Assembly: GCA_964361015.1 (NCBI GenBank)
Contig: CAYHZE010000001.1
Span: forward strand, 1 to 51,845
Length of the DNA stretch: 51,845 bases
From: an uncultured Candidatus Saccharibacteria bacterium
Lineage (GTDB): Bacteria > Patescibacteriota > Minisyncoccia > Sungbacterales > HO2-52-23
Direction of reading: 5' to 3'
The position numbers and the translations under genes were made by a program. This document shows positions 1,171-44,295 of this stretch, piece after piece; within the stretch, counting starts at the first letter, position 1; the number at the start of each line of letters is the position of its first letter. The notes below the pieces were generated by a model. That model ran no database searches and was not told where the DNA came from. It worked only from the letters and a program-made list of their open reading frames with translations.

Positions 1171-1330
1171 AGACCTGTCCCCTTATAACCTTATCTGTTG
1201 CAATTTTCAGATTGATGATATGGCTTTGTAAAAATTTTTTAACATATACGCCGTATATGCTCCAAAATTTTTCCTTCGCCATATCCTCAATTTGAAAATA
1301 ACGCTTACGAAAATTATAAGGGGACAGGTT
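1171..1330 (-). repeat. Family B palindromic element, copy B1 (degenerate)
   Basis: Arms agacctgtccccttataa / ttataaggggacaggt; central taacatatacgccgtatatgctccaaaattttt matches the other B cores. Confidence 0.85.
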
Positions 1331-1386
1331 CATTGACTGAGTCGGTCGTTTCCATGCCTTATGCGGATAAGCCATAAATAGTATCT

Positions 1387-2322
1387 ATGCTATGTGACGT
1401 AAAAGAGTTTCAAGATGCGAGGGTGTTAATAACGGGTGGATCAGGTTTTTTGGGAACGCATCTGATTAAAAAATTGCAAACACTTGGCACACGGGAGATT
1501 GTGAGCGTGCATCGGGGGAAGAAAGCGCATGATATACCGTCAGGCGTAATTGATTGTGTATGCGATATGTCCAAACCCGAATCTATTGACAGGGTACGGG
1601 CTATGGGCAATGTTGATTATATATTTAATCTTGCAGGTTTAAGCGACCAGCGTATGCCTGATCCCCATCTGCAGGATTTATGGAATGCGAATGTCATTTC
1701 TCTTATACATCTCTCTGGCGCGATTGATTGGAGTAAAGTAAAAGGAGCGGTACACATGGGGACAACTGCCGAATATGGCAATCAGGAGGTGCCGTTTCAA
1801 GAGAATCAGCGTCCACTGCCTACAAACGCCTATGGATGGTCAAAGGCGGCCGCAACGCAATATGCGGTGATGATGGTTCAAGGAGGATACGCAAAATGGT
1901 GTGTTGCGCGGCAATTTACCGGTTACGGTCCGGGACAAACAACCGGATTGATCGTTGATCTTACCCGCGCGCTTAAAAGAGGAGAGACGTTCATGGTTAG
2001 CTCCTCGCATGTGACACGCGATCCGATTTTTGTATCCGACACAATTGAAGGACTTATTCGCCTCGCATACTGCTCAAAAGCGTCTGGTGAAATTATCAAT
2101 CTTTGTTCGGGAAAAGAAATTTCCATTGGCGAAATTGCAGAAATGGTTCACTCAATTGCAGGTGTAGGCAGAATTGAATTGGCGCAAGAAGAGCCGCGCA
2201 AAGGAGATTTTTTAAGAAGTTGGGGAAGCACAGAAAAGATAGAACAGTTCCTTGGATGGAAACCCCATATTTCTCTTGAAGAAGGACTGCGAATAACTGT
2301 GCCGACGATTTTGGATATATAA
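1387..2322 (+). CDS. NAD-dependent NDP-sugar epimerase/dehydratase (extended SDR)
   Basis: N-terminal VLITGGSGFLGTHL Rossmann motif; YGWSK (YxxxK) catalytic motif. Confidence 0.8.
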   Translation: MLCDVKEFQDARVLITGGSGFLGTHLIKKLQTLGTREIVSVHRGKKAHDIPSGVIDCVCDMSKPESIDRVRAMGNVDYIFNLAGLSDQRMPDPHLQDLWNANVISLIHLSGAIDWSKVKGAVHMGTTAEYGNQEVPFQENQRPLPTNAYGWSKAAATQYAVMMVQGGYAKWCVARQFTGYGPGQTTGLIVDLTRALKRGETFMVSSSHVTRDPIFVSDTIEGLIRLAYCSKASGEIINLCSGKEISIGEIAEMVHSIAGVGRIELAQEEPRKGDFLRSWGSTEKIEQFLGWKPHISLEEGLRITVPTILDI

Positions 2323-2325
2323 ATA

Positions 2326-2478
2326 GGACTTACACACTTGGTTCCTCCCCTAAAATAGGGGAGGTTAGGAGGGGTATAGGTGAGGAATGAAACTTGCGGT
2401 CTTTAGTTTCTGCCCTCACTCCTACCACCCCTAACCCCTCCTGTGCCAGGAGGGGAAAACAGGAGGGGAAAAGGAGAT
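2326..2478 (+). repeat. Family A palindromic element, copy A1
   Basis: ggacttacaca + hairpin cctcccct-aaaat-aggggagg + ttaggaggggtataggtgagg ... ccctcactcctaccacccctaa + hairpin cccctcct-gtgcc-aggagggg. Confidence 0.9.
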
Positions 2479-2495
2479 ATAATAAATTGTGAATA

Positions 2496-3863
2496 ATGCC
2501 ATTACGATCATATACCATTCTTTTTGCAATACGCGATGCTGAATCTTTCCATTATAAGCACATACTTACCGAGCTCGCGTTTCGCGGTCATCGTGTGAGG
2601 GTTGTTTATGATACAAGATGGACTGATGAATCAGAACTTGAGAAATTAAAACAATGCACGGCTGAATATAGTCATGTTGAATATCGTGCCGCATTGCATC
2701 AAAAGGGATTGGGGAGAATTGCGCTTTTCTATGTCCGCGAGATTTTGAGTTATCGCCGATATCTTTTAATACCTCAACAATCTTCATTTTTCCGCGAGCG
2801 TTGGAAAGGATATTTGCCTGCGTTGGTTCGCAGGATTGTATCATATCAATTGGCGGAATATCTGCTTAAGAGCGGTATAACGGGAGAACTTGGGTGGATG
2901 ATTGAGCGTATGATACCTTCGAGCCGTCATGTGCGTCGTGACATTACGTTGTTTGCGCCGGATGTGATATTTGCTTCTCCTCTCACGTTGCGATTTTCTT
3001 CCACGGAAGTGGAATATGTGAAAGCCGGCATGGCACTAGGAATTCCATGCGTATCATCGGTGTTGACGTGGGACAATCTTAGCAGTAAAGGGCTTATTCA
3101 TGTGTGGCCAACATGGCTTCTGGTGTGGAATAAAGATCAGGTGCGTGAAGCCAATGAATGCCTTTTTTTTCCCCGTGAGCGCATGCGGATTGTGGGCGCC
3201 ACTATGTTTGACGATTGGTTTGAAAAATCACGAATTGCCACTGACCGAATAGTATTTTGCCGCCAGCATGGGCTTGATCCAGAGCATCCCATTGTTCTTT
3301 ATCTTGGATCGTCTCAAAGAACGGGTGATGAAACGTGGATTGTGGAACGTCTGTATCGGGCGCTTCGCAGTGCCAATGACCCCCGCCTTCAAAGAACGCA
3401 ACTTATGGTGAGGCCGCATCCCGCCAATTCCAGCCATTATAAAAAACTTAACCTTTCCGGCGTGCATGTTATTCCTCAAGAGGGCATGTTACCGATTGGC
3501 GCATCTGCATTTCAGCTTTTTTTTGACTCCATACATCATGCGGTTTGTTCTGTCATGGGGGTGGGTACAAGCGGGATACTTGATACGATGATTGCGGGGA
3601 AACCCGCTCTTGCAATTATCAGCGATGAATATAAAGAATATCAAGTACAGGCATATAATTTCCAGCATCTTCTCCGTGCCGATGCCCTTGAGACAGTTGG
3701 TACGCCGGAAGAATGTATGCCGATTATTCAAGCAATATACAATGGCAAAGATAGCAAACAGGCGAAGCGCGAAATGTTTATTCGTGATTTTGTGAGACCG
3801 CGGGGAATCGAAAAAAATGTCGGTGCTCTCATAGCAGATGAAATAGAATCTCTCGTGCGGTAA
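2496..3863 (+). CDS. Uncharacterised GT-B-like transferase, TagF/KpsS-like (paralog 1 of 3)
   Basis: 455 aa; shares the block SSVLTWDNLSSKG...IVGATMFDDW and a C-terminal layout with ORFs 39217..40647 and 40623..42002; RPHP motif; lies next to a cytidylyltransferase. Confidence 0.45.
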   Translation: MPLRSYTILFAIRDAESFHYKHILTELAFRGHRVRVVYDTRWTDESELEKLKQCTAEYSHVEYRAALHQKGLGRIALFYVREILSYRRYLLIPQQSSFFRERWKGYLPALVRRIVSYQLAEYLLKSGITGELGWMIERMIPSSRHVRRDITLFAPDVIFASPLTLRFSSTEVEYVKAGMALGIPCVSSVLTWDNLSSKGLIHVWPTWLLVWNKDQVREANECLFFPRERMRIVGATMFDDWFEKSRIATDRIVFCRQHGLDPEHPIVLYLGSSQRTGDETWIVERLYRALRSANDPRLQRTQLMVRPHPANSSHYKKLNLSGVHVIPQEGMLPIGASAFQLFFDSIHHAVCSVMGVGTSGILDTMIAGKPALAIISDEYKEYQVQAYNFQHLLRADALETVGTPEECMPIIQAIYNGKDSKQAKREMFIRDFVRPRGIEKNVGALIADEIESLVR

Positions 3864-3919
3864 TAGAGCGTGATCCATGCGCGCGATATTACCGCGTGTT
3901 CAACGTATACTAACCTTCC

Positions 3920-4426
3920 ATGAGTATTATTGAATTCAAAGATATCGCTTCTTTACGCAAAGAGCATAAAGATAAAAAAATTGTGTTTTGTTCAGGAACA
4001 TTTGATTTGACGCACGCGGGCCATGTGCTTTTTTTAGAGGACTGCAAAAAATACGGAGATCTTCTTGTGGTAGCTGTTGGCAGTGATTTTAATCAGCGGG
4101 TGCACGCAAAAGGTAAGGGGCGTCCAGTTCAAAATGAGCATCTTCGTCTGAAAATGGTCTCATCTCTCAAACCGGTTGATTACGCCCTTCTTGATATAAA
4201 TGCAAAAGATGGCGATATACTTGCTCTACTTCCGGATTTTCTTGATGCCCTCAAACCCGACGTGTATGTTGTTAATCAGGATGCATTTGATATTCCCCGA
4301 CGGCGTGAATTGATAGAAAAGTTCTCTACAGAGATGATTGTCTTGGAACGAGTATGTCCTCCTGAATTTGAAAGTATATCAACAAGCAATATGATTAAAA
4401 AAATAAAAACAGATGTGGAAAAATAA
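3920..4426 (+). CDS. Cytidylyltransferase-family protein (TagD / RfaE domain II-like)
   Basis: FCSGTFDLTHAGHVLFL carries the HxGH nucleotidyltransferase signature; 168 aa. Confidence 0.75.
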   Translation: MSIIEFKDIASLRKEHKDKKIVFCSGTFDLTHAGHVLFLEDCKKYGDLLVVAVGSDFNQRVHAKGKGRPVQNEHLRLKMVSSLKPVDYALLDINAKDGDILALLPDFLDALKPDVYVVNQDAFDIPRRRELIEKFSTEMIVLERVCPPEFESISTSNMIKKIKTDVEK

Positions 4427-4428
4427 AT

Positions 4429-4450
4429 AGACCTACTGCACAATAGGTCT
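4429..4450. repeat. 22-bp mini-palindrome resembling fused family-B termini
   Basis: agacctactgcacaataggtct. The first 11 nt equal the B5 terminus and ctgcacaata equals the B6 arm; flanked by TA on both sides if the ends are taken as gacct/aggtc. Confidence 0.5.
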
Positions 4451-4488
4451 AATAAATGAAAAAGATGAGAGGGAAGGCAGGACAATAT

Positions 4489-4524
4489 AAAAGCGCGTTT
4501 GATTTCAGAAACGCGCTTTTTTTA
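4489..4524. terminator. Bidirectional intrinsic terminator
   Basis: aaagcgcgttt-gatttcag-aaacgcgcttt, an 11-bp stem with an A-run before and a T-run after, between convergent genes. Confidence 0.8.
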
Positions 4525-4556
4525 TTTTCTCCTGTCTTCATACAGACATGTTAATG

Positions 4557-5147
4557 TTATATAAATTTAATTTTTTCTCTTAAGAGATACGGCAAGGCCA
4601 ACAGGGAATGCGCAATCGCGCAATTAGATACAATCTGTCCCGCAAACACCATCTCATACCATTTTTCAATGGGTATAAGCAGGGTTTCCATTATCTCGGT
4701 TTCGTCTCGCGTCGGCCGTGCAATAAATGTACAGTCAAATGCCAAGAAAGGATGGTAACGCAGATTCATAGATTGCGTCTCTATCCAGGGATCGCAGGCA
4801 AGTTTGATTATCCAGTTTGCCTTATATCCTGTTTCTTCAAGAAGTTCCCGCTTAGCCGTCTCTTCGGGAAGTTCCATTTGAGCGATGTCTGACGACCCTC
4901 CGGGGAATTCAAGTGAAAAGTCAGCCATACCATGACGAAATTCTCTTATCGCCACCACATTCCGGTCCGTGGTAAGCGGAAATACAATTGAGGAAGGCGG
5001 GCGTAGATGCCACCATAGGTGATGAGTATAGGCTGCACCTTTTGGCGGTTTAAATATCCGACGCACCATGCATCGTCCGTGTTCTGCGTGATAGATTATT
5101 TCAGTGTTCTCTATTGTCGGCGATTTGAGACCTCCATCTTTGTCCAT
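4557..5147 (-). CDS. NUDIX hydrolase (ADP-ribose / NDP-sugar pyrophosphatase-like)
   Basis: Nudix box GGSSDIAQMELPEETAKRELLEETGY (Gx5Ex7REUxEExGU). Confidence 0.85.
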   Translation of the reverse strand: MDKDGGLKSPTIENTEIIYHAEHGRCMVRRIFKPPKGAAYTHHLWWHLRPPSSIVFPLTTDRNVVAIREFRHGMADFSLEFPGGSSDIAQMELPEETAKRELLEETGYKANWIIKLACDPWIETQSMNLRYHPFLAFDCTFIARPTRDETEIMETLLIPIEKWYEMVFAGQIVSNCAIAHSLLALPYLLREKIKFI

Positions 5148-5223
5148 TCACTACCTCTCTTTTTGTATATAACATGTGGGAACTTTCTTCCTCAAGGCTT
5201 CTCTTCTCCTTTACAATAGACAG

Positions 5224-5252
5224 ATTGTATCATAGATTATTTATTTTTGCAA
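5224..5252 (-). promoter_or_regulatory. Candidate promoter for the NUDIX gene
   Basis: The minus strand reads TTGCAA - 17 nt - TACAAT. Confidence 0.35.
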
Positions 5253-5321
5253 CTTTTGATAAATTAGCGATATCGTGATAGATTTGCATAGCATACGCGA
5301 ATATCATACGAGGAGCAAAAA

Positions 5322-6836
5322 ATGCACCTTCACAAACATATCAGAAATCCCAGATTTTTGTTGATGTATTCTCCCCAATGGTTTGATGAACGTTTTGGCG
5401 CCATTAAGCCGGAGGGTTCGCTTGGCATCACCTATTTGGCAGGCGCGCTAAAGATCAATGGATATGAAGTTGAGATTCTTGACTGTTGCGTGGGGAATGC
5501 GCGGTATAGTTTGCAAGAAACATTTTACCGCCAGACGCCTATGAATAATGGAATGGTGCGTGTGGGCATGGATCTACATGACATTCTCAAAGAAGCCGAG
5601 CGTTTTGATGTCATTGGTATAAGCTCTCTGTTCACCGCGCAAACAAGAATGGTGGAGGAAACAGTATCTGCGCTTGTCCGCGCATATCCTGAAAAACGTA
5701 TCATTCTTGGCGGAGTCAATGCCCGTTCCCAACTTGGTAGATTTTTTGATGCCGGAGCGCATATTATATGTACGTCTGAAGCGGAAGCGACGATCATTCA
5801 AATAGCCGACGTTTTGCGGGAAGGAAACAATGATTTCTCAAAGGTGCGCGGTATAGCATTCAAGCAGAATGGACAGATACGCATGACTCCACCCGCGTTA
5901 ACGCTGAATCATTTAGACGATTTGGCGATACCGGCATGGGATATGTTGCCGCTTCAACGCTACTGGGATATTGCGCGTCCTCATGGCAGTGTTTTCTCAC
6001 AAGCCAATCCGTACCGGTATGCATCGGCAATGACATCCCGCGGATGCCCGTTTAGATGCACGTTTTGCCATATTTCTTGGGAAAAAGAACAGCGCGATAT
6101 ATTTGGTGCGATCGGCACATTGAGATTCAAAACGCCGGAACGCGTGTTGCAAGAAATGTTGATTCTCAAAGAGCTTGGAGTGGAGTATGTTCTCTTGGAA
6201 GATGATTCATTGCTGGGAAAAAAAGCAAGAGCCATACAGATTTTCACCCTCATGCGGGATTTACATTTAAGATTGGGCGATGTCAATGGGATTAACCTTG
6301 CGCATATGTTCGCCATGCGTCATGGAAAGCTTGTTGTTGACGAAGAGCTTTTGGAGACAATGGTGTCGGCTGGTTTTGAGGATCTCCAGTTTCCGGTAGA
6401 ATCCGGGTCGCAAAGGATTATTGATACCTATGCTACCGGCAAGCTCAATCTTGAGAAGCATGACATTATAGCCCTCATTAAAAAGGCAAAACAATTAGGG
6501 ATAAAAGTCGGAGGCAACTATACGTTTGGTTATCCGGACGAGACGTTGGATGAAATGAACGCAACCATAGATATAGCCAAAAGACATATTGAGGCGGGGC
6601 TTGATAAAGCAAACTTTGTTATTATCACTCCCTTTCCCGGTACCCAGTTTTATGATTATGTTATCACTCATGATCTTTTTCTTCCCGGAATAGATATAGG
6701 GATGCTCGATTGGATGAGGCCTTCAATCAAAACGCTCATTCCTTCATCCACCTTAGAGTATGTGATTACCGAAATTTGGAAAGATATAAATAATCAAGAA
6801 CGAATTGCCATACTCCGATCTATGGTTCCTCAATGA
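5322..6836 (+). CDS. B12-binding-domain radical SAM enzyme (class B, methylase-like)
   Basis: N-terminal cobalamin-binding-like Rossmann segment, then the SRGCPFRCTFC CxxxCxxC cluster motif; AGGAG Shine-Dalgarno about 9 nt upstream of the ATG. Confidence 0.85.
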   Translation: MHLHKHIRNPRFLLMYSPQWFDERFGAIKPEGSLGITYLAGALKINGYEVEILDCCVGNARYSLQETFYRQTPMNNGMVRVGMDLHDILKEAERFDVIGISSLFTAQTRMVEETVSALVRAYPEKRIILGGVNARSQLGRFFDAGAHIICTSEAEATIIQIADVLREGNNDFSKVRGIAFKQNGQIRMTPPALTLNHLDDLAIPAWDMLPLQRYWDIARPHGSVFSQANPYRYASAMTSRGCPFRCTFCHISWEKEQRDIFGAIGTLRFKTPERVLQEMLILKELGVEYVLLEDDSLLGKKARAIQIFTLMRDLHLRLGDVNGINLAHMFAMRHGKLVVDEELLETMVSAGFEDLQFPVESGSQRIIDTYATGKLNLEKHDIIALIKKAKQLGIKVGGNYTFGYPDETLDEMNATIDIAKRHIEAGLDKANFVIITPFPGTQFYDYVITHDLFLPGIDIGMLDWMRPSIKTLIPSSTLEYVITEIWKDINNQERIAILRSMVPQ

Positions 6837-6840
6837 TTAC

Positions 6841-6876
6841 AACTGGAACGCAATGCGTTCCAGTTTTTTCTTTTTT
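6841..6876 (+). terminator. Intrinsic terminator after the radical SAM gene
   Basis: aactggaacgc-aat-gcgttccagtt followed by ttttttctttttt. Confidence 0.8.
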
Positions 6877-6898
6877 ACATGTTTCGTAATTCAAAGCG

Positions 6899-6927
6899 TT
6901 GTACAATTTTTCTTTGTTGTGATAAAT
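6899..6927 (+). promoter_or_regulatory. Candidate promoter for the epimerase gene
   Basis: TTGTAC - 17 nt - ATAAAT, about 50 nt upstream of ATG 6980. Confidence 0.35.
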
Positions 6928-6979
6928 TAAATAAACTACTTATATAGTTAGTTTCCCACTTTTATATCAGGAAGAAAAA

Positions 6980-8017
6980 ATGCATCATAAGAATATGCAA
7001 GATTCTTATCCATCATCCATACATTCTTCTCGACGGCCAAAAAAGGCTCTTGTGTTGGGAGCAGGAGGGTTTATTGGGCATCATTTGGTCAGACGATTAA
7101 AAGACGAGGGGTATCAAGTGACAGGCGTAGATGTCAAAGAACCCGAATTTTCGTCCACCGTGGCCGATGATTTTATCATTGGTGATTTGCGTGATTATCA
7201 TATTTGCAATACCGTCATCACTCCGGACACAGATGAAATCTATCAACTTGCCGCAGATATGGGCGGGGCAGGTTATATTTTTACCGGCGAACATGATGCT
7301 GACGTGATGCACAATTCCGCCACCATTAATCTTAATGTGGCTCGCGTTGCCGTCAAAAAAGGAGTTCGTAATCTTTTTTATTCCTCATCTGCCTGCGTAT
7401 ATCCAAAATATAATCAAGAAGATTCTCGCAATCCAGTATGTTCGGAAGAAAGCGCGTATCCTGCCGCGCCTGATAGCGAATACGGCTGGGAAAAACTTTT
7501 CAGCGAGCGCATGTACCTTGCTTTCAACCGTAATTACGAATTCCACGCGCGCATTGCCCGTTTTCATAATATCTTTGGGCCAGAGGGGACGTGGCAGGGA
7601 GGACGGGAAAAAGCGCCGGCGGCGATATGCCGCAAAGTTGCCGAAGCTCATGACGGAGACGAATTGGAAATCTGGGGAGACGGCAAACAAACCCGTTCCT
7701 TCCTCTATGTGGATGAATGTTTGGAAGGAGTGCGCAGACTCATGCAGTCGGATGCCACCGGACCGCTCAATATCGGTTCCGAAGAGATGGTGAGTGTTAA
7801 TGAGCTTGTTGATATGGTTTGTAGAATTGCGGGAAAAAATCTGGTAAAAACATATAATTCAAATAAACCCCAGGGTGTGCGGGGCCGCAATTCAGATAAT
7901 AGATTGATTTACGAAAAACTCAACTGGAAGCCAAGTTCATCTCTCGAACAAGGCCTTGAGAAAACCTATCATTGGATTGAACAGCAAGTGAAGGCCAAAG
8001 ATCGCAATGAGAAATAA
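6980..8017 (+). CDS. NDP-sugar epimerase closely resembling GDP-mannose 3,5-epimerase
   Basis: GAGGFIGHHL Rossmann motif; the block RFHNIFGPEGTWQGGREKAPAAICRK ... IWGDGKQTRSF is characteristic of the GME family. Confidence 0.75.
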   Translation: MHHKNMQDSYPSSIHSSRRPKKALVLGAGGFIGHHLVRRLKDEGYQVTGVDVKEPEFSSTVADDFIIGDLRDYHICNTVITPDTDEIYQLAADMGGAGYIFTGEHDADVMHNSATINLNVARVAVKKGVRNLFYSSSACVYPKYNQEDSRNPVCSEESAYPAAPDSEYGWEKLFSERMYLAFNRNYEFHARIARFHNIFGPEGTWQGGREKAPAAICRKVAEAHDGDELEIWGDGKQTRSFLYVDECLEGVRRLMQSDATGPLNIGSEEMVSVNELVDMVCRIAGKNLVKTYNSNKPQGVRGRNSDNRLIYEKLNWKPSSSLEQGLEKTYHWIEQQVKAKDRNEK

Positions 8018-8042
8018 AAAAACCAAAGGTGGGGTTGCATAC

Positions 8043-8094
8043 GTTCACATACATATTGGACTCTATCACCGAGTCCAATATGTGATGGACTGAT
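8043..8094 (+). repeat. Left copy of an approximately 52-bp direct repeat flanking the AbiE islet
   Basis: gttcacatacatattggactctatcaccgagtccaatatgtgatggactgat; contains a perfect 13-bp stem hairpin (8051..8083). Confidence 0.75.
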
Positions 8095-8203
8095 ATAGCC
8101 TGAAAATATCGTAATATCGCCGGATGGGTCGAGGACGGCACCATTGAAAATTGACAAGAATATCGATATTTATTATCCTGTACATATAAGTACAGGTTTA
8201 TTT

Positions 8204-8776
8204 ATGCCTAAAAACGTAAAAATTCAAAATTTACACCGTTTTGCCGAGCTTGCGCGTCTTGGCGAGGTTGTTTTTCATACTGATGATTTGGCGAATTTGT
8301 GGCGCATTACGAACAAAAACACTCTCTATACCACGATCAAACGTTATGTAGAGCAGGGGCTTCTTTTTCGTATTCATAAAGGATTTTACGCCATCAAGCG
8401 ACCAAAAGACATTGATCCGATACTCCTTGGCGTGAAGGCATTGCATGGTTATGCCTATGTGAGCACCGAGACCATTTTACGAGGGCAGGGGATTATTCTG
8501 CAAGAGCTTCCGGCTACTACGCTTGTGAGTACTGAGACAAAGCGTTTTATGGTAGCAGGGAATGCCTTCTATTCGCGCAAACTCCCTGACACCTTTTTGT
8601 ATAACGCACAAGGTATTACCACCGATACCACCGGAGTACGGAGGGCAACGACAGAGCGTGCGGTTGCTGACCTACTCTACTTCAATAAGAGCGCGTATTT
8701 TGATATGTCCAAGGGTATTGATTGGAAAAAGGTACAGAGCATCCAAAAAGATATAGGGTATCCATTAACCAAATAA
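8204..8776 (+). CDS. abiEi: AbiEi-like antitoxin / transcriptional regulator (type IV TA)
   Basis: The N-terminal pattern VVFHTDDLANLW...TLYTTIKRYVEQGLLFRIHKGFYAI is typical of the AbiEi_4 wHTH domain. The gene lies immediately upstream of a DUF1814/AbiEii gene. The ORF track starts at TTG 8144; ATG 8204 is preferred. Confidence 0.7.
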   Translation: MPKNVKIQNLHRFAELARLGEVVFHTDDLANLWRITNKNTLYTTIKRYVEQGLLFRIHKGFYAIKRPKDIDPILLGVKALHGYAYVSTETILRGQGIILQELPATTLVSTETKRFMVAGNAFYSRKLPDTFLYNAQGITTDTTGVRRATTERAVADLLYFNKSAYFDMSKGIDWKKVQSIQKDIGYPLTK

Positions 8777-8780
8777 GACT

Positions 8781-9536
8781 ATGGCTGACATTATTTTACC
8801 CAAACCAAAAGATGCAGTGCATAAAGCATGGCTGTACCGTGTGCTCTCCGGCATCTATGATGATGCGACGCTTGCGCACGTTCTGTATTTCAAAGGCGGG
8901 ACGTGTGCCGCAATGCTCGGCTATCTTGACCGTTTTTCCGTTGACCTTGACTTTGATCTTGTGGGGGATCGTACGGTACTTTCTCATACACGAACCCGCC
9001 TTGAGGCAGTATTTCGTGATCTCGGACTTACGATACACGACCAAAGTAAAGTTGTGCCGCAGTACTTCCTGAAATATGACGCACCAGAGGGGGAACGCAA
9101 CACCATGAAAATTGACGTTTCCATATCGCCACCTCAAGCAAACATGTACGAGTCAAAACGCTTCCAAGAGATTGACCGCATCATTATGTGTCAAACAATT
9201 GAGACCATGATGGCAAATAAACTGGTCGCACTTATTGACCGATACGAGCATAGTGAGGCGATTGCAGGCCGCGACCTTTATGACATCCATCACTTTTTTA
9301 TGAAAGGGTATCGGTATAACGAGGAGGTCATACGCGAGCGTACAGGAAAAAATACGAAGCAGTTTTTAAATGACCTTATTATTTTTATCGAGAACCGCAT
9401 CACCGAGGAGATTATCAATCAAGACATCAATACACTTCTGCCTTACGAGCAGTTTTCCCGTATTCGTAAACTTCTCAAACAAGAGACGCTGATGTTTTTG
9501 CGTGATGAGCAGAAGCGGATAGAGAAAAGGAAATAA
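8781..9536 (+). CDS. abiEii: AbiEii/AbiGii-family nucleotidyltransferase toxin (DUF1814)
   Basis: FKGGTCAAMLGYLDRFSVDLDFD and GRDLYDIHHF motifs typical of the family; 4 nt after abiEi. Confidence 0.8.
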   Translation: MADIILPKPKDAVHKAWLYRVLSGIYDDATLAHVLYFKGGTCAAMLGYLDRFSVDLDFDLVGDRTVLSHTRTRLEAVFRDLGLTIHDQSKVVPQYFLKYDAPEGERNTMKIDVSISPPQANMYESKRFQEIDRIIMCQTIETMMANKLVALIDRYEHSEAIAGRDLYDIHHFFMKGYRYNEEVIRERTGKNTKQFLNDLIIFIENRITEEIINQDINTLLPYEQFSRIRKLLKQETLMFLRDEQKRIEKRK

Positions 9537-9551
9537 ACGTTATATTTAGCC

Positions 9552-9782
9552 ATGGAAGGCGAGCTATTGAAAAATGAATTTGCCCGAAAATATTCGAATA
9601 TTGCGAGTTGGGTGGATGGTGGCACGATTGAGATTGGCAGAGCAGAATGGGGCCACGCCTTTATCCGCGTGTACGATGAGGGCGGCACCGTGTGGGAAGG
9701 GAAGCGGAGCTACGGGACCATAGACGAAGCGTTACAGGATGCAGAGCGGGCGATAGGGGAATGGATGAAGAAAAATTTATAA
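9552..9782 (+). CDS. Hypothetical small protein (76 aa)
   Basis: ORF only; no recognisable motif; co-oriented, 15 nt after abiEii, inside the repeat-flanked islet. Confidence 0.45.
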   Translation: MEGELLKNEFARKYSNIASWVDGGTIEIGRAEWGHAFIRVYDEGGTVWEGKRSYGTIDEALQDAERAIGEWMKKNL

Positions 9783-9929
9783 AGAAACTATGCGAGAAAA
9801 ACTAATCAGAGAATGCGAAATAATACAAGAAAACTGCACATAATCAATAGGATATAAAAGTTTTAATAACTCACCTTAAACGTCGGGCTGTCCTCCGGCC
9901 GATACGCGCAGGTATTTTTCTATGCACAA

Positions 9930-9981
9930 GTTCACCTACATCTTAGACTCCATGGCCTGGTCCAATATGTGGTGGACTCAT
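9930..9981 (+). repeat. Right (degenerate) copy of the approximately 52-bp direct repeat flanking the AbiE islet
   Basis: gttcacctacatcttagactccatggcctggtccaatatgtggtggactcat; roughly 80 percent identical to the left copy by eye, with the hairpin disrupted. Confidence 0.7.
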
Positions 9982-10126
9982 GCACTGTCTTGATCAGGCA
10001 GTCCATTTTAGTTTATGATAATTATATGAGGATAGGTCTCATGAAGCATTCTCCAGGCAGGAGTATAGACCGCTCACAGAACAAAAAGGTCGAAACATTA
10101 ATCAAGTTAACAATACATAAAAAATC

Positions 10127-10852
10127 ATGACAAAAAAATTATTCATTACCTTTCTAATGGTATCTTGGCTGGCTGTTGGATCAATGGGCGTATCAGCACA
10201 AGCCATGACCGAAGTACAGCCTGTTGTTGCTCCCGCACCCCTTCTTCCTCTCATATCTTCTACTGATACCTCGACAATTGCCGAAGTAGACCTTCAACCG
10301 GGAACAAAAAGTCCCCATGTAAGGAAAATTCAGGAAACGCTTAAAGCCATGGGATACCTTCCTGCGGATCTTGAAACCACTGAATATCTTGGACCAAAAA
10401 CAAAAGACGCAATTATGAACTTTCAAAGGGCCCAAGGCATTTCTCCTACAGGATTTTTTGGACAAGCAACACGAGCCGCTTTAAGGAAAAACTTTCGAGG
10501 AAGCGGAGAAGTGATAGATAGAAATGTTGATATTGTTTGCATGAAAACGGAAGTAGAAAAAAGAGAGAATGCGCTTTTATCAGCCTATGATACGCATGCC
10601 GGCAAACTAAAAATAGCCCGCGAAACAAGAAAAACCGATTTCTTGGCCGCATGGTCCATCCAGGACCCCAAAGCAAGGCATACAGCCCTTAAAACAGCCT
10701 GGGAAAAATATCGCCAAAGTGTAAAAACGGCCGCAAATGAATGGAACATAAGCAGAAAAACAACATGGACCCAATTTGCTCAACAAGCAAAATCCTGCAA
10801 AGCCACAGCGGCCGAGACGCAAGACTTAGAAAAAGTTGAAGTGGCGGAATAA
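10127..10852 (+). CDS. Secreted protein with a peptidoglycan-binding (PG_binding_1) domain
   Basis: Signal peptide MTKKLFITFLMVSWLAVGSMGVSAQA; HVRKIQETLKAMGYLP...GPKTKDAIMNFQRAQGISPTG matches the PGBD pattern. Confidence 0.75.
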   Translation: MTKKLFITFLMVSWLAVGSMGVSAQAMTEVQPVVAPAPLLPLISSTDTSTIAEVDLQPGTKSPHVRKIQETLKAMGYLPADLETTEYLGPKTKDAIMNFQRAQGISPTGFFGQATRAALRKNFRGSGEVIDRNVDIVCMKTEVEKRENALLSAYDTHAGKLKIARETRKTDFLAAWSIQDPKARHTALKTAWEKYRQSVKTAANEWNISRKTTWTQFAQQAKSCKATAAETQDLEKVEVAE

Positions 10853-10912
10853 TCCAGAAAGAGGATCGCAATCCAAGGAATAGAAATCACGATTTATTGT
10901 TGTGTTCCCTGT

Positions 10913-10946
10913 ATAATAAAATCCAGTGACTACTGGATTTTATTAT
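10913..10946 (+). terminator. Hairpin/terminator after the PG-binding protein gene
   Basis: ataataaaatccagt-gact-actggattttattat, a perfect 15-bp stem. Confidence 0.55.
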
Positions 10947-11081
10947 AGACTCCATGAGGTGAACGTTTCAAATTTGGTCTTGTAAAGTTTTATCATTCAA
11001 TATATAATGACTTAACGATTTGTTCCTGCTATTATTTTTTTTCAAAAACCAACCGTTTCTTAGACATTTTTTGATTATCCT

Positions 11082-11957
11082 ATGCTAAAACCAATATGGA
11101 CATATAAATTACGGAGGGCAAGATTCTCAAATTTTGTTTCTATTTTCATTTCTATTTTTAGTGTCAAAAATATCAAAAAGTTTTTCAAAAAGTTCTTCAA
11201 AATTCCTATACAAGAAAGAACAATTAAAAAACAATTTGATTTAATTTATTCTCATTTTCGTCAACGATTTAATCTTGATTATGCCTTTGATGTCAATGTT
11301 ATTTATTATTTAAATAATAAGCCTGCGATATTGAATAAGTTTGAACTTTGGAAAATTGTTATCCAAGAATTTGGTGATATTTTACGTTCCTTACAACCAA
11401 AAAGTATATTAGAAATTGGCTCTGGCACCGGTAAGAACATTCTAAGTCTCGCGGCTATGCTGGATATTGACAAATGTGTAGGTTTGGACCTTGCCGAAAA
11501 TGGCGTTCGGCTTTCCAAAGAATTGACAAACGACCCTCCTTTGGATTTTCTCGGATACTTAACGATGATTGATAAAGAAAAAATAAGAGAAAAACTTAAA
11601 AATACGCAAATTGAATTTGTACAAGGAGACATGAGAGATTTATCCATGTTCCCGGATAATAGTTTTGATGTGGTTTTTTCTTATGCCGCCATTGAATTGA
11701 TATCTCAAGATTATGACCAAGTTTTTAAAGAAGTTTATCGGGTTACTAAAAAATACGCTGTTTTTTATGAAGGTTTTAATGAATATAACAGCATGATTCA
11801 GCAAATATACAGACGAAGGAAAAATTATTTTATGGGAGATTCAACGGATGTGTCAAAAGCAGGTTTCAAACTCATCAATTTTTATATGCCTCAAGTAAGC
11901 GGAATAAAAACTAATAATAGTTTTTTAATAGCTATGAAACGGCCTGCGGATTCCTAA
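11082..11957 (+). CDS. Class I SAM-dependent methyltransferase
   Basis: ILEIGSGTGKN motif I; visibly AT-rich and K/N/I/F-rich compared with neighbouring genes. Confidence 0.7.
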   Translation: MLKPIWTYKLRRARFSNFVSIFISIFSVKNIKKFFKKFFKIPIQERTIKKQFDLIYSHFRQRFNLDYAFDVNVIYYLNNKPAILNKFELWKIVIQEFGDILRSLQPKSILEIGSGTGKNILSLAAMLDIDKCVGLDLAENGVRLSKELTNDPPLDFLGYLTMIDKEKIREKLKNTQIEFVQGDMRDLSMFPDNSFDVVFSYAAIELISQDYDQVFKEVYRVTKKYAVFYEGFNEYNSMIQQIYRRRKNYFMGDSTDVSKAGFKLINFYMPQVSGIKTNNSFLIAMKRPADS

Positions 11958-11966
11958 ACGTCATTT

Positions 11967-12920
11967 TTAACTCAACCCTCCATCCCAGACAGGTGATGAA
12001 GGCGCTCCCTTTTTTACCCGCCTGTTCTTTGATCGTACAACGCAGTTTACGATTTGGCGGGTAAGCTTGCCTACTCCTTCCTTACGAATGATTTTTCTCG
12101 CCCCATAAATAAAATTTATGGCTTTGTTTAAACCCGACCTGCGGTAGAATACATTTTTTTTCAAGCGGTATGCTCTTATAAACGCGGGCGAACAGTATTG
12201 TTTCATAAATCGTATGCGTTGTGTGATCATTTTTTGTCGCATCTTGTATGAGATGCTATCCTCGCTTATGTAATGATCGAAAAGATTTATGCGCGCAAAT
12301 TTTACTACCCCGCCATTTGCTATGCATTGGGCAAACCAGATCACATCCCATTCGATTGCATCAGGAGGGAATAAACCAACTTTTGCAAATGTGCTTCGTT
12401 TAATGACAAACCCATTGCCGCATGTGCCATAGGTAAATGCATGCTCCGCGGTACTGCCGTAGTTTATGCCCGGACCATAATAAAATGGGCGGCTGGTATT
12501 GCGTACTAAAAAATGTTTTATGCCTCCGCATACCAGCACATCAATATCAGAATTTTTTTTCATCACCCCGACAGCCGCATCTATGCCGTCGGCATGCACT
12601 CTGTCATCATCGGGCAAGAGTATGATATATTTCCCGCGTGCGAGCATGATGGCTTTATTCAATCCATGTTGAGGTGACCGATCTTGTTCCGAAAGAAAAA
12701 TATGCACTGCGTCACGATGGCGCAATACTACTTCTTGCGTAGAATCGGTGGATGCGCCATCTGCAATAATAAGCTCATCCTCGCCGCTTATAAATTTTGC
12801 TAAATCCGCAATCGTATTCTCAAGCCGAGGGCCACGATTTTTTGTGAACACAAGATAAGAAATTCGCCGCGTATGCGCGTCATCAAAATGTTTATAGTAA
12901 AGGAATGTATTATCTGACAT
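11967..12920 (-). CDS. Glycosyltransferase family 2
   Basis: ISYLVFTKNRGPRLENTIADL...IIADGASTDST...LLPDDD (GT-A fold, DxD). Confidence 0.8.
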   Translation of the reverse strand: MSDNTFLYYKHFDDAHTRRISYLVFTKNRGPRLENTIADLAKFISGEDELIIADGASTDSTQEVVLRHRDAVHIFLSEQDRSPQHGLNKAIMLARGKYIILLPDDDRVHADGIDAAVGVMKKNSDIDVLVCGGIKHFLVRNTSRPFYYGPGINYGSTAEHAFTYGTCGNGFVIKRSTFAKVGLFPPDAIEWDVIWFAQCIANGGVVKFARINLFDHYISEDSISYKMRQKMITQRIRFMKQYCSPAFIRAYRLKKNVFYRRSGLNKAINFIYGARKIIRKEGVGKLTRQIVNCVVRSKNRRVKKGAPSSPVWDGGLS

Positions 12921-12944
12921 GATTATTTATATTTCAATTTCATG

Positions 12945-13886
12945 TCATGTGCGCGGTTTCCATACAGCAAATGAATAAAAATCATGGTACAATCCGCCAC
13001 AGGGAACATGCTGTGCTTTAAGAATATCTATAGCGCCGAGATGCTCAAGTTCGCGCAGGCGCGTCATATAGCCCGATAGATAATTTCGTTTGCGACTGTG
13101 CATGAGCGTGAGATAGTCCGGTAAATTATTTTCATCATAAAACTCCACAAACGAGTCCACATGCACGAAGACAGAGGGTTTTTGCGCTAGCGCGAATTGG
13201 AGAAACGGTTCGAATTTTTCGCCTATCTGCTCGAGGGAATTCACGGCTAAAATCGCAGATCTTTCTTTTAAGGAAAACGATTTTTCGGGAAAAAACATAT
13301 CAAATATATGTCCGGTTATGTTGTATCCTTTTTTCTCGGCAAGCAGATTAATTATTTTTTTTGGTACATCAATCCAGTCTGAACCGTGAAGTTCTTTTTC
13401 CGGATACATGTGGGCGAGTTCCACAAGGTTCGCACCCGTACCGCAGCCAAATTCATAAATGGGATTATGAGTCGAAAGATAAGTGGCAAAGAGCCATTGG
13501 CGAATGATAAAGAGAAAATCTCTCTCAAAATTTTCGTTAAGCGGCATAACATAATCGCCATAGAGACGGACTGGATGTTTTTGTTTAATATACTTAGGTA
13601 TAAGAGAACGCTCGTCGTATCCGGACTCAATGAACATATTGAGATTTTCATTCCATCCTCGTATCCAGCGCTCTTTTTGATCAATGCCCGATATGCCCAA
13701 GTCGGGAGATTCAAGCCGTTTAAGGATTGTCAGCATAGCTTGATCGCGTTCATGTTGTTCCATTTCTCGATAACGAAGATCAGTCTTTTGAATCAATATA
13801 CGGATTTTCTCCGAGAGATCACTGACGGCAACGTCAAAGAATCGCGCAATATCTTTTTCTGATAGTGAGTGGATAGTGATATTCAT
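12945..13886 (-). CDS. Class I SAM-dependent methyltransferase
   Basis: IYEFGCGTGANLVELA motif I. Confidence 0.7.
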   Translation of the reverse strand: MNITIHSLSEKDIARFFDVAVSDLSEKIRILIQKTDLRYREMEQHERDQAMLTILKRLESPDLGISGIDQKERWIRGWNENLNMFIESGYDERSLIPKYIKQKHPVRLYGDYVMPLNENFERDFLFIIRQWLFATYLSTHNPIYEFGCGTGANLVELAHMYPEKELHGSDWIDVPKKIINLLAEKKGYNITGHIFDMFFPEKSFSLKERSAILAVNSLEQIGEKFEPFLQFALAQKPSVFVHVDSFVEFYDENNLPDYLTLMHSRKRNYLSGYMTRLRELEHLGAIDILKAQHVPCGGLYHDFYSFAVWKPRT

Positions 13887-13946
13887 ATCCGTATACTACA
13901 TATAAAATTAAAATATATCAAGATTTTTGTATGTAACCCCTCACGC

Positions 13947-14029
13947 TGTCATTGCAATGAGTCGCTGGTGTTGCAATCTCTATCTCGGAATGTGAGATTG
14001 CCGCGTCATTGCTGTTCCTCGCAATGACA
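13947..14029. repeat. Family D core, copy D-a (outer arms degenerate)
   Basis: tgtcattgcaatgag...gcaatctctatctcgg...gagattgc...ctcgcaatgaca is collinear with the core at 49548..49632. Confidence 0.7.
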
Positions 14030-14130
14030 TATCTTTGGCTTAATTTTAAGAGGGTGTGAGCAGTTACTTTTGTATGGGATTGCATATGATGGAGGGAAAC
14101 ATATGATTCCCTTCTTTTGTTATATTATGT

Positions 14131-14898: not shown

Positions 14899-14902
14899 GA
14901 TT

Positions 14903-16006: not shown

Positions 16007-16015
16007 AAATATATT

Positions 16016-16175
16016 AGACCTGACTTTGTAATTATTTTTGTGCTGCAATTTCCAGATTTCGGCTGCAGCGAAGTAAAAATTTTTCAACATATACGCTGTA
16101 TATGCTTCAAAATTTTTTTAGCACCCGCTCGAAATCTGAAAATTTTGCTACAAAAATAATTACAAAGTCAGGTCT
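16016..16175 (-). repeat. Family B palindromic element, copy B2
   Basis: Perfect 26-bp arms agacctgactttgtaattatttttgt / acaaaaataattacaaagtcaggtct; conserved core; TA on both flanks. Confidence 0.92.
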
Positions 16176-16180
16176 ATTTT

Positions 16181-17499: not shown

Positions 17500-17502
17500 A
17501 TG

Positions 17503-17516
17503 ATGCGCGTAAGTCC
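17503..17516 (+). repeat. Solo family-A right terminus
   Basis: atgcgcgtaagtcc followed by tatttga, compared with atacgtaagtcc tattga at the right end of A6; no remaining element body. Confidence 0.45.
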
Positions 17517-26460: not shown

Positions 26461-26480
26461 ATTAAGAAAAGGGTCGGATT

Positions 26481-31332: not shown

Positions 31333-31606
31333 TTTTTGCATTTAATTCCTCCCCTAGCATAGGGGAGGCGAGGTGTGGGTATAAAGTGATGGATAAAACT
31401 TGCGGTCTGTGGTTCCTGCCCTCACCCATACCACCCCTAACCCCTCCTGCATCAGGAGGGGAAAGATGAACTATCCTGTTCCTCCCCTAGCATAGGGGAG
31501 GTTAGGAGGGGTATAGGTGAGGATTGGAACATGGAGTTTGTGCCCTCACCCATACCACCCCTAATCACTCCTTTATCAGGAGGGGAATAAGAGATGCAGA
31601 CGTAAA
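31333..31606 (+). repeat. Family A palindromic elements, tandem dimer (A4a + A4b)
   Basis: Two complete hairpin1 / long-stem / hairpin2 units head to tail, with unit 2 starting near 31478; the outer termini are degenerate. Confidence 0.85.
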
Positions 31607-38547: not shown

Positions 38548-38697
38548 GACTTACGCATTTTGGTTCCTCCCCTATTCTAGGGGAGGTTAGGAGGGGTATA
38601 GGTGAGGGATAGAACCTACGCTATATTGTTTTTTTCCTCACCCATACCTCCCCTAACCCCTCCTATACTAGGAGGGGAAAAGGAGATGCGTAAGTCC
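38548..38697 (+). repeat. Family A palindromic element, copy A5 (best preserved)
   Basis: Perfect termini gacttacgcat / atgcgtaagtc enclosing hairpin1, the long stem and hairpin2; 150 bp. Confidence 0.92.
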
Positions 38698-42003: not shown

Positions 42004-42930
42004 ATGGCATTCTCAATTCAAGACAATTTTATAATCGCGAATTACCACTATGTGGAAAATTCTCGCCCCGATTTTTCCGGTATTCATCCTTGTTCAGTAC
42101 AGGAGTTTGAACGCCAAATTTCATTTTTTGCGGAGCATTTTAGTTTTGTTTCCGTACCTGAACTTTTTGCCGCCGCGCAACATAATGAGAATAAGAAATG
42201 CTGTGCCATTACGTTCGATGATGGTTTGAAAGATCAGTACGATAATGCGGCGCCTGTTCTTAAAAAATATAACGCAAGCGCGACATTTTTTATCATTACC
42301 GCAACGCTTCAAGGGCGCGTTCCTTTGGCGCATAAGATTCATACGGTTACGTCCCGTATCCCAATGAATGATCTACGGGAGAAATTCAATTTATTTTTGG
42401 CATCGGATTTCCCTGATTTCACAGAATATCTTATTCCAAAAGATCGTCGTCTGACGGATAAGCGCCGTTATGACGATATTATTTCGGCCAACGTAAAGGA
42501 GGCATTTACCATTATACCCCGTAAGGTATCAGATGCTTTTCTTGCCAAATGTTTAGGTGAACTTAAGTTTGATGAGTGGGAATTAGCAAAAAAACTTTTT
42601 ATGAGCTTACAAGAAATACAAACGTTGGATAAGGACGGATTTTTCATTGAGAGCCATACGCATAATCATTATGACTTAAGCGGCGCGAATTTGAATGTCC
42701 AGCGTGATGATTTTGATGCGGCAGAAAAAGTATTTAAAAAAATGGTAGGCAGATCTCCGAAGATAATGGCATATCCGTATGGACGCCCGCCGGAGACAGA
42801 TGAGGTTCTGCATGAATATGGTTTTAGGCATGCGGTGACTGTTGAGTCGCGAGTTGTCAGCGACGCCGATAATCCTTTGCGCATTCCTCGTTTTGATACG
42901 AACGATATAAAAATATTTTTGGATACCTAA
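42004..42930 (+). CDS. Polysaccharide deacetylase (NodB homology domain)
   Basis: CAITFDDGLKDQYDNAAPVLKKYNASATFFI; ESHTHNH. Confidence 0.8.
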   Translation: MAFSIQDNFIIANYHYVENSRPDFSGIHPCSVQEFERQISFFAEHFSFVSVPELFAAAQHNENKKCCAITFDDGLKDQYDNAAPVLKKYNASATFFIITATLQGRVPLAHKIHTVTSRIPMNDLREKFNLFLASDFPDFTEYLIPKDRRLTDKRRYDDIISANVKEAFTIIPRKVSDAFLAKCLGELKFDEWELAKKLFMSLQEIQTLDKDGFFIESHTHNHYDLSGANLNVQRDDFDAAEKVFKKMVGRSPKIMAYPYGRPPETDEVLHEYGFRHAVTVESRVVSDADNPLRIPRFDTNDIKIFLDT

Positions 42931-42934
42931 TGCT

Positions 42935-43345
42935 ATGAATATATCTCATGATGTTAGCGGAGGGGCGAAGTATAATGAAAAAAATCAGACTGCGTTGAGT
43001 ATAAAAGGCGTAGGAATTGATATAGAAGAAGTTGCCCGTTTTCGGGCATATAGTCCAGCCGCAAAAAAAAGTTTTTATAGCGCCATATTCACCCAAAAAG
43101 AAATGCAGTACTGTATGTCAAAAAAGGATCCATATCCGCACTTCACGGCTCGCTTTTGCGCGAAGGAGGCTGTCACAAAAGCTCTTCATGGGACACATGT
43201 TGATTTGAAACATATAGAAATCACCAATGATGCGCAAGGCCGCCCCAAAGTGAGTTTCAAAGAAAAAAATAATAATTATATGATTGAAATTTCCTTGTCC
43301 CATACGAAGCAACACGCAATAGCAATCGCATTATGGCTACGTTAG
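42935..43345 (+). CDS. acpS: Holo-ACP synthase (AcpS-type 4'-phosphopantetheinyl transferase)
   Basis: GVGIDIEEVARF ... FTQKEMQYC ... FCAKEAVTKAL ... ISLSHTKQHAIAIAL; the true start may lie downstream of 42935. Confidence 0.8.
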   Translation: MNISHDVSGGAKYNEKNQTALSIKGVGIDIEEVARFRAYSPAAKKSFYSAIFTQKEMQYCMSKKDPYPHFTARFCAKEAVTKALHGTHVDLKHIEITNDAQGRPKVSFKEKNNNYMIEISLSHTKQHAIAIALWLR

Positions 43346-43373
43346 ACAGTTTCTCAAAAATTTGATATAACCT

Positions 43374-44138
43374 ATGTATATGAAAAAATATCATACAGCA
43401 TTTAGCGGACTTCATTCGGATATTGAAAAGAATTTACAGCAGGGTTTGCTTAGTCTTTTAAAAGAATCTCCAATCCCTGATACGGAATTCATTGCCAATC
43501 TGCCTCTTTTTTTGCGGCGCCAGGATATAGCGCGGATTTTATTTATGGATTACTTATATAGGGAAATGATCGGAGTCCATGGGGTGATCGCCGAATTCGG
43601 TATTAGGTGGGGGAGAAATCTTCCCCTTTTGGAATCACTGCGCGGTATTTACGAGCCTTACAATTATAATCGTAAAATTTTAGGATTTGATACATTTCAA
43701 GGATTTCCCAATACTTCGGAAAAAGACGGAAAAGCAAAAATTATCGCTACCGGGACGCTTGCGGTGAGTGACGGGTATGATGCTTATTTAGGGCGCATTA
43801 TGGATCATCATGAAAGCGGGAATCCGGTTTCTCATATTAAAAAATATGAGCTGGTAAAAGGAGACGCAAGTATAAGCATAAAAAAATATCTTAAGGATCA
43901 CCCGGAGACCATCTTTGCGTTCGCATATTTTGATTTTGATTTATATGAACCGACAAAAAACGTGCTGAAAGCAATTAAGGGACATCTGACCAAAGGGAGC
44001 GTGATTGCATTTGACGAAGTAAATCATAAAGATTTTCCCGGCGAGACGCTCGCATTAAAAGAAGTCTTGGGCCTTGATACTTATCATTTGTGCCATAATC
44101 CTTATGGATCGGCGCAATCATATTTGGTTATTGAATAG
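43374..44138 (+). CDS. TylF/MycF-like (macrocin-O-methyltransferase family) methyltransferase
   Basis: VIAEFGIRWGRNL...GFDTFQGFP...FAYFDFDLYEPTK...GSVIAFDE; the stop TAG overlaps the first bases of repeat B5. Confidence 0.6.
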   Translation: MYMKKYHTAFSGLHSDIEKNLQQGLLSLLKESPIPDTEFIANLPLFLRRQDIARILFMDYLYREMIGVHGVIAEFGIRWGRNLPLLESLRGIYEPYNYNRKILGFDTFQGFPNTSEKDGKAKIIATGTLAVSDGYDAYLGRIMDHHESGNPVSHIKKYELVKGDASISIKKYLKDHPETIFAFAYFDFDLYEPTKNVLKAIKGHLTKGSVIAFDEVNHKDFPGETLALKEVLGLDTYHLCHNPYGSAQSYLVIE

Positions 44139-44295
44139 ACCTACTGCGTAATTATTTTTGTAGCGAAATTTTCAGATTTCGAGCGAGGCGCAGGAAAAAT
44201 TTTGAAGCATATACAGCGTATATGTTGAAAAATTTTTACAAAGCCGTAGCCGAAATCTGGAAATTGCAGCACAAAAATAATTACGCAGTAGGTCT
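44137..44295 (+). repeat. Family B palindromic element, copy B5
   Basis: Perfect 25-bp arms agacctactgcgtaattatttttgt / acaaaaataattacgcagtaggtct; TA flanks. Confidence 0.92.

Follow-up and report, generated by a model that had tools for sequence, protein, structure and literature searches.

What kind of element occupies, eight times over, the gaps between the genes of a single bacterial contig? The contig is a stretch of 51,845 nucleotides from an uncultured Candidatus Saccharibacteria bacterium (assembly GCA_964361015.1, contig CAYHZE010000001.1, positions 1 to 51,845; hereafter the window), and the elements, designated families B and C, are hairpins of about 160 bp that had been predicted from the letters of the window. 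The original prediction set them apart from classical MITEs (miniature transposable elements with inverted repeats), which have conserved terminal inverted repeats (TIRs) and a free interior. This contrast did not survive: the elements are MITEs, widespread in the Patescibacteria or candidate phyla radiation (CPR), rather than a new kind of element, because they possess TIRs, exact 3-bp duplications at their boundaries and an empty orthologous site, and lack coding capacity. What is unusual is that the entire element, and not its termini alone, is kept as a rod with fixed asymmetric purine-rich loops, optimised on one strand.

Eight hairpin elements in a glycan biosynthesis cluster

All eight copies were recovered at the predicted places, with refined lengths of 159-162 nt (Table 1), and a covariance model (CM) built from their relatives and run over the window with filters off matched exactly these eight, everything else scoring at most 29 bits. 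A pattern of two conserved inner boxes, ATTTYGAGCG N50-80 GYAGCCRAAAT, is present in six of the eight copies and in none of 100 shuffles (0/100), the boxes of B1 and B4 being degenerate. When the copies are oriented by these boxes, five lie on the plus strand and three on the minus, in agreement with the earlier remark that both orientations occur. Every copy has complementary termini (e.g. AGACCT...AGGTCT, GAGCC...GGCTC). Of the two conserved terminal motifs first proposed, AGACCT stands and AGAGCC has to be shortened, since its leading A is part of the flanking TAA duplication; family C, whose two copies are 93% identical, thus starts at GAGCC. Nor do the arms fall into five or more unrelated sequence classes, as had been thought: they are alignable variants of one arm (AGACCT-nnnGCnnAATAA...), present in other genomes too.

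The copies are all intergenic and sit in the short spacers of a nearly unidirectional sugar-nucleotide and glycan biosynthesis cluster (epimerases/dehydratases, glycosyltransferases, methyltransferases, cupins and an aminotransferase; the window has a G+C content of 43%). Not one open reading frame (ORF) is contained in an element; those that touch one overlap its ends or run through from the flanks. In size too the elements stay below the ~400 bp expected of a prokaryotic MITE. The glycosyltransferase ORF at 24922-25665 owes its last codons and its stop to B3, and the ORF at 43374-44138 ends inside B5, taking its last codons and/or its stop from the element. Insertions such as B3 and B5 will make the C-termini of proteins variable and lead annotations to extend ORFs spuriously.

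Three-base target duplications and an empty orthologous site

With strictly defined hairpin boundaries, exact 3-bp direct repeats flank 27 of the 106 elements of a first set, against a permuted mean of 6.8 (maximum 13) when the flanks of different elements are paired. In an independent set from metagenomes such repeats flank 36 of 103 elements, for 9.1 (maximum 17) in controls; repeats of 4 bp are not in excess and those of 2 bp hardly so, which sets the length of the duplication at 3 bp. The duplicated triplets are A/T-rich (AAT, ATT, ATA, TAA and TTA, with some TGA, TAG and CTA). Five of the six testable copies in the window have an exact duplication (B2, B3, B4, B6 and C2, the exception being B5); B1, which is too decayed, and C1, whose left flank is cut by the window edge, were left out of this count. 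One element type (TGGGTCTGTCGCC...) is found in related contigs with three duplications, CTA, TGA and AGA.

The site of B2 is empty in the loci L123 and L124, which read GGCATAATTTTATG where the window reads GGCATAAAAATATATT[element]ATTTTATG. The 75%-identical ortholog of the gene pair that brackets B2 (in GCA_030697905.1) has a gap of just four bases, GGCATAA-TTTT-ATG, and in an 88%-identical ortholog, L122, the stop codon has received another family member. Identical cores recur within genomes of Kaiserbacteria (L029/L057/L074) and Moraniibacteriota (L054/L109), and near-identical ones within Kerfeldbacteria (L035/L039). The genes beside the elements vary: 148 neighbouring ORFs hit 141 Pfam families, and none recurs. 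The elements are mobile, and their insertion duplicates 3 bp. Such traits define a MITE (PMC3184786).

Two further observations concern these orthologous loci. The family member in L122 (4043-4254) carries an extra G/C-rich hairpin of about 42 nt inside its right inner box. The glycan cluster at 2496-18619 of the window is partially syntenic with L123 (contig JAUYPA010000035.1 of GCA_030697905.1, a metagenome-assembled genome of an unclassified 'bacterium'), over genes for a radical SAM protein, a NUDIX protein, a cytidylyltransferase, an NTP-transferase, a CDP-glucose dehydratase, an isomerase and a GT2 glycosyltransferase; the best protein match to the window is 88% identical.

A fold maintained by compensating mutations

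Each copy forms one long hairpin; when folded as RNA, B5 reaches -85.3 kcal/mol against -29 for its shuffles (z = -16). The two inner boxes are, as first reported, not complementary to each other, and they enclose an asymmetric internal loop with AGCG opposite GYAGC. A second, similar outer loop lies about 25 bp further out (left CGTAGCGAAAT, right TTGCAGCAGAAA), and a common core type has tandem G.A/A.G mismatches at fixed places (GAA opposite UGA, GAGGA opposite GACGA). The internal loop may plausibly be a recognition site for a protein or an RNA.

The claim that each right arm is the reverse complement of its own left arm calls for a measure of covariation, which we obtained from 67 diverse elements aligned by MAFFT with no structural information. 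RNAalifold found 48 consensus pairs in this alignment, 41 of them with double changes that keep the pair. Standard pairs fill 88.9% of the cells, compared with 63.7% when partners are shuffled (none of 500 shuffles reaches the observed value), and the paired cells fall to 33-50% when the partner column is slid by 1-3 positions. Cells with a double change number 860, for 279 expected. The covariation extends from the terminal arms through the middle helix to the apical helix, and at some positions, such as columns 94/117, G.U is the commonest pair. Two copies from the window illustrate the process: B2 and B5 are 93% identical over a 95-nt stretch of arm plus core and differ in a 6-7-nt arm segment (GACTTTG vs ACTGCG) that is altered on both arms, both hairpins remaining perfect. 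The arms do not behave as ordinary TIRs in decay; what is inherited is complementarity itself, and the whole rod-like fold, not the sequence, is kept by compensating mutations.

Distribution of the family

A search for the two-box pattern in the Genome Taxonomy Database (GTDB; one genome per species, 596 Gb) returned at least 118 loci, where a rough estimate predicts a few dozen matches by chance. Among the matches listed, 106 of 125 are clear hairpins of about 160 nt and 19 are not hairpins, consistent with the chance expectation; the non-overlapping family matches number 116, in 100 sources. The relatives total more than 200; Patescibacteria hold most of them, Bacteroidota and Elusimicrobia a few. 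The copies are thus neither confined to this locus nor without an excess of compensatory changes, the two outcomes that the original prediction had named as counting against it. By record title, 69 of the 99 true loci among the matches listed belong to named CPR/Patescibacteria lineages, including Saccharibacteria, Parcubacteria/Paceibacterota, Moranbacteria, Uhrbacteria, Kaiserbacteria, Peregrinibacteria and Berkelbacteria. The others are 11 unclassified 'bacterium', 5 Bacteroidota (among them the isolate Emticicia soli ZZ-4), 4 Elusimicrobia, 1 Acidobacteriaceae, and 9 with proteobacterial labels that come from automated third-party assemblies and are unconfirmed. The apex of family B, CATATACAGCGTATATG, is also found in loci of Saccharibacteria, Uhrbacteria, Sungiibacteriota and Paceibacterota, and the core of family C in an Uhrbacteria locus.

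The boxes were required for entry into this first collection, and their invariance within it is therefore circular. A second set was collected from metagenomes through the outer loop instead of the inner boxes. Both exact inner boxes are present in only 21 of its 114 elements (within one mismatch, the left box in 40 and the right box in 54), so that the invariance first attributed to them is in part an artefact of the search. The variants keep a general form, ...nCGARA on the left and YAGnnRAAA on the right, and of the first set only a part has the outer loop. Large subfamilies conserve the loops, which are not universal signatures.

Searches of other collections gave little. A blastn search of a plasmid collection returned no match, and three matches to the box pattern in viral contigs were taken as chance, none being matched by the CM (E<=0.01). 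Over the whole window no Rfam family reached its gathering threshold and no tRNA or tmRNA was found; in a permissive Rfam scan (E<=10) of positions 23300-26600 the elements matched only generic hairpin models of plant microRNA precursors, far below thresholds.

Strand asymmetry of the fold

The two strands of the hairpin are not equivalent. On the strand written ATTTYGAGCG..., the MAFFT alignment holds 179 G.T against 76 A.C mismatches and 90 G.A against 54 C.T, and its unpaired internal columns are 65% purine; a model-based alignment of 114 elements gives 283 G.T against 107 A.C. When computed with RNA parameters, this top strand folds more stably than its complement in 111 of 114 elements (the mean difference is 13 kcal/mol); DNA parameters give 109 of 114. 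A purely double-stranded explanation does not predict that both arms should have their purines on the same strand.

Transposition, selection on the fold and alternative explanations

We consider it probable that the elements are 160-bp non-coding transposons moved in trans, whose lineages have been selected for the fold of one strand. A transposase encoded elsewhere would recognise the TIRs (5'-RRRCCTGTY... in the window) and integrate the element at A/T-rich trinucleotides, with duplication of exactly 3 bp, a length that points to a DDE-type enzyme. Our best guess is a parent enzyme of the IS5 family resembling the IS1031 group. TNA duplications (TTA, TAA, TGA) make up about half of those in the first set and about a quarter in the second, and GAG ends are found in some subfamilies only, others starting with AGACC, GAAAC, TGGGTC or TACCATC. 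The lineages that go on to spread would be those selected for the fold of one single strand, most likely as RNA produced by co-transcription of the element within tightly packed operons, snap-back single-stranded DNA being the less likely alternative. RNA is preferred on account of the location in operons with gaps of a few bases, the loops, purine-rich like those of structured RNAs, and a position at which G.U outnumbers every other pair. The gaps between genes, a few nucleotides long, suggest that the elements are co-transcribed with their neighbours; that the fold acts as RNA is a suggestion kept weak by the random orientation of the copies described below. We would entertain only tentatively the further idea that the rod, with its pair of similar asymmetric loops and its tandem G.A mismatches, is a functional single-stranded module (RNA or snap-back DNA) bound by a dedicated protein across the CPR. 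Were this the case, the hairpin could be a structure-specific substrate or cofactor of a DDE transposase, a role that would account for the inheritance of complementarity in place of sequence, or else a domesticated RNA element in the operon expression of minimal genomes.

Several results weigh against selection on a transposon moved in trans. No transposase with matching termini was found in the roughly 1.6 Mb of DNA flanking more than 200 elements, so that the defining link to an autonomous element is missing. These flanks likewise contained no pair of inverted repeats of insertion sequence (IS) size and, in six-frame translation, no IS5-type C-terminal motif. The Pfam scan of the 148 neighbouring ORFs was negative for a parent transposase as well; all-against-all clustering of 1936 ORFs from all loci joined only housekeeping genes (e.g. 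SecA, RpoB, ClpP, UvrB) and produced no repeated transposase-like ORF. The duplicated triplets are often AAT, ATT or ATA and not the TNA of the IS1031 group. Where the flanking genes are co-directional, the elements are oriented at random to them (30 sense, 32 antisense): half of the copies would be read as the weaker antisense hairpin, and a role as RNA in cis loses force accordingly. Promoter and terminator consensus sequences inside the elements did not exceed shuffles, and T-tract terminators were not found in them; together with the random orientation, this makes the asymmetry a property of the element and not of the host transcription unit. Finally, the 'sense' strand was set by the boxes and a structure-aware model, a choice that may inflate the asymmetry somewhat.

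One may ask, then, whether the elements are simply ordinary MITEs in which the hairpin is a by-product of long inverted repeats and has no single-stranded function, the arms staying alike through shared transposase binding or through gene conversion or repair within the palindrome. Long stem-loops are generic to MITEs (PMC3184786), and the random orientation to genes, the lack of a partner gene and of an Rfam match, and the box invariance that is partly a matter of ascertainment all suit such a view. It nevertheless appears unlikely to us, as the covariation runs through all 160 nt, well beyond a plausible transposase site, and the mismatches are strand-biased (179 G.T against 76 A.C). Loop purines on the same strand in both arms are predicted neither by double-stranded nor by symmetric-repair models, and homogenised arms would lose their asymmetric loops, whereas the loops persist.

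The strand-specific fold, the structure conserved over variable sequence and the fixed asymmetric loops, reminiscent of the extrahelical bases of attC sites, could also be those of a single-strand DNA element whose folded hairpin is the recombination substrate of a tyrosine or HUH enzyme, in the manner of attC or of the palindrome-associated PATE and REP elements of IS200/IS605. This is very unlikely, since such systems do not make exact 3-bp duplications of variable sequence, and we saw neither a GTTRRRY-type core site nor a single-orientation array, no nearby gene for an integrase, TnpA or RAYT, and no orientation bias with respect to gene direction. Non-mobile chromosomal genes for structured non-coding RNAs, or cis-regulatory hairpins acting as terminators or stabilisers, would account for the strong covariation, the purine-rich loops and the G.U pairs that are commonest at columns such as 94/117. 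We regard them as the most improbable of all, for insertion polymorphism already contradicts them (target duplications, an orthologous site that is empty, and unrelated loci that hold identical copies), both orientations occur within one operon, and the elements have neither T-tract terminators or promoters nor an Rfam family. Selection for the fold of one strand in a transposon moved in trans remains the reading that we prefer.

Comparison with known repeats

Neither hairpin MITEs nor a fold kept by compensatory changes, uncommon as the latter is, is new. MITEs classically fold into long stem-loops, and bcr1, a mobile repeat of about 155 bp dispersed in the Bacillus cereus group, is small and non-coding and has a fold that compensatory changes maintain at the RNA level (PMC3184786). 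The elements described here resemble bcr1 in the short direct repeats at their ends and in the compensatory changes that keep the fold; however, bcr1 has 5-bp repeats, a two-hairpin, cruciform-like fold and a range limited to one species group, as opposed to 3-bp repeats, a single rod with two asymmetric loops and a spread over numerous CPR classes plus a few other phyla. ERIC/IRU, Correia (NEMIS), YPAL and Nezha are intergenic imperfect palindromes of 100-170 bp with TIRs and short A/T-rich duplications, co-transcribed with their neighbours into long hairpins, and Nezha was validated through empty and filled sites (PMC3184786, PMC2229807), as B2 is here. These repeats are conserved in sequence within a genus or family, whereas the present family has termini of several classes and low identity, its fold and loop geometry being conserved in very distant hosts. 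Correia and ERIC use TA targets.

Among insertion sequences, the IS1031 group of the IS5 family has a 3-nt insertion site (PMC2516522). The TNA target and GAG ends of this group fit family C (TAA|GAGCCTGTT...) but not family B with its AAT/ATT. More broadly, the IS5/IS1031 and eukaryotic PIF/Harbinger-Tourist groups have targets TNA/TWA and ends GAG / G(G)GCCnGTTT, and differ in that no such transposase was found near any copy of the present family. IS3- and IS30-type enzymes also make 3-bp duplications. The attC sites of integrons share with our elements imperfect palindromes, structure kept over sequence and fixed unpaired bases that mark one strand, but were rejected as an identity: the elements lack R''/R' core sites (RYYYAAC/GTTRRRY), a neighbouring integrase and a cassette array, are found in either orientation and have target duplications of 3 bp.

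Other candidate identities were set aside as well. PATE of the IS200/IS605 type and REP/RAYT, which go with a fixed flanking tetranucleotide and make no target duplication, disagree with the variable 3-bp duplications and with the absence of any HUH/Y1 gene recurring nearby; a TA target (IS630 type) disagrees with the clear excess of 3-bp repeats and the slight one of 2-bp repeats. The loop misfits the consensus of a K-turn, and a TAGCGA box recalling plasmid single-strand origins looks coincidental.

Targeted literature searches found no paper describing this family (a search with the TIR string gave primers only), and a 2024 review of MITEs does not mention the CPR. What is unusual is the breadth across the CPR and the depth of the strand-specific structural conservation. 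CPR genomes are small and streamlined, and are not known to carry many mobile elements. A MITE superfamily common to dozens of CPR lineages, with recent identical copies in individual genomes, shows ongoing transposition and offers a marker for horizontal exchange between these lineages. It marks variable glycan-synthesis islands as rich in insertions, and is likely to break assemblies and to yield spurious ORFs among metagenome-assembled genomes. Strand-specific structural conservation over such distances is rare in selfish repeats and provides a clean natural data set on covariation; a binding protein, if there is one, might give a handle for genetics in organisms that have none.

Other repeats and variant forms

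Table 1. Hairpin elements of families B and C and other repeats in the window (strand by conserved boxes; flanks given as left/right)
Feature	Coordinates	Strand	Flanks	Remarks	CM score (bits)
C1	2-161	+	right TAA 162-164	GAGCC-type termini; left duplication cut by window start	123.7
B1	1171-1331	-	ATG/ATT	most decayed copy; inner boxes degenerate; right terminus AGGTTC	82.8
B2	16016-16175	-	ATT/ATT	between CDP-glucose 4,6-dehydratase and dTDP-sugar isomerase genes	138.6
B6	23391-23552	+	TTA/TTA	type I core, tandem G.A loops	136.2
B3	25648-25806	+	AAT/AAT		144.8
B4	26301-26460	-	ATT/ATT	left inner box mutated (ATTTCTGGCG)	139.6
B5	44137-44295	+	AAT/ATT	arms perfectly complementary; flanks not an exact duplication	163.9
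C2	51192-51351	+	TAA 51189-51191/TAA 51352-51354		137.8
Second repeat family, ~125 nt	2338-2467, 18641-18771, 20040-20169, 31344-31473, 31478-31597, 38560-38689, 45073-45202, 49693-49790			intergenic; G/C-rich palindromes	
Three more MITE-like hairpins	46281-46417, 49524-49661, 50309-50447			same-style termini (GAGACC..., TGAGACTGTAG...)	

The second repeat family of Table 1 is composed of TTCCTCCCCTnnnnAGGGGAGG TTAGGAGGGGTATAGGTGAGGG ... CCCTCACCnnTACCACCCCTAA CCCCTCCTnnnnAGGAGGGGAA, folds into a long hairpin or into three hairpins, and has no Rfam match at gathering threshold. The three additional MITE-like hairpins have a core that differs from that of families B and C (TGTCATTGCGAGG...CTCGCAATGACA), and two of them are flanked by 3-bp duplications (TAA, ATA). 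An arm of the TGAGACTGTAG type is combined with a core of the B/C type in locus L013, which suggests that termini and cores have been exchanged between families.

Variant forms were also seen outside the window. A short form of 69 nt in L065 (1769-1837, flanks AAT/AAT) consists of the terminal arms and the outer loop only (CGTAGCGAAAT TGTAGTAGAAA); it represents an internal deletion, or else the basic unit whose apex once received a core of about 95 nt. The likeness between inner and outer loops agrees with a nested origin of the element. Two partial copies with a repeated TTTCTACTGCAAGGTAAGA segment are apparently joined or nested in L107, at about 690-900. A subfamily found in Saccharibacteria, Moranbacteria and other hosts (L001, L018, L019, L026, L031, L051, L079, L104 and L109) carries about 30 nt inserted asymmetrically, in its right arm alone (...CAAGC-N25-GCGGTGAGAT...), as a result of which the minimum-energy hairpin stops short of the true termini. 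Back in the window, two 59-nt copies at 8036-8094 and 9923-9981, 80% identical and each containing the palindrome ATATTGGACTC...GAGTCCAATAT, form a repeat unrelated to the B/C family.

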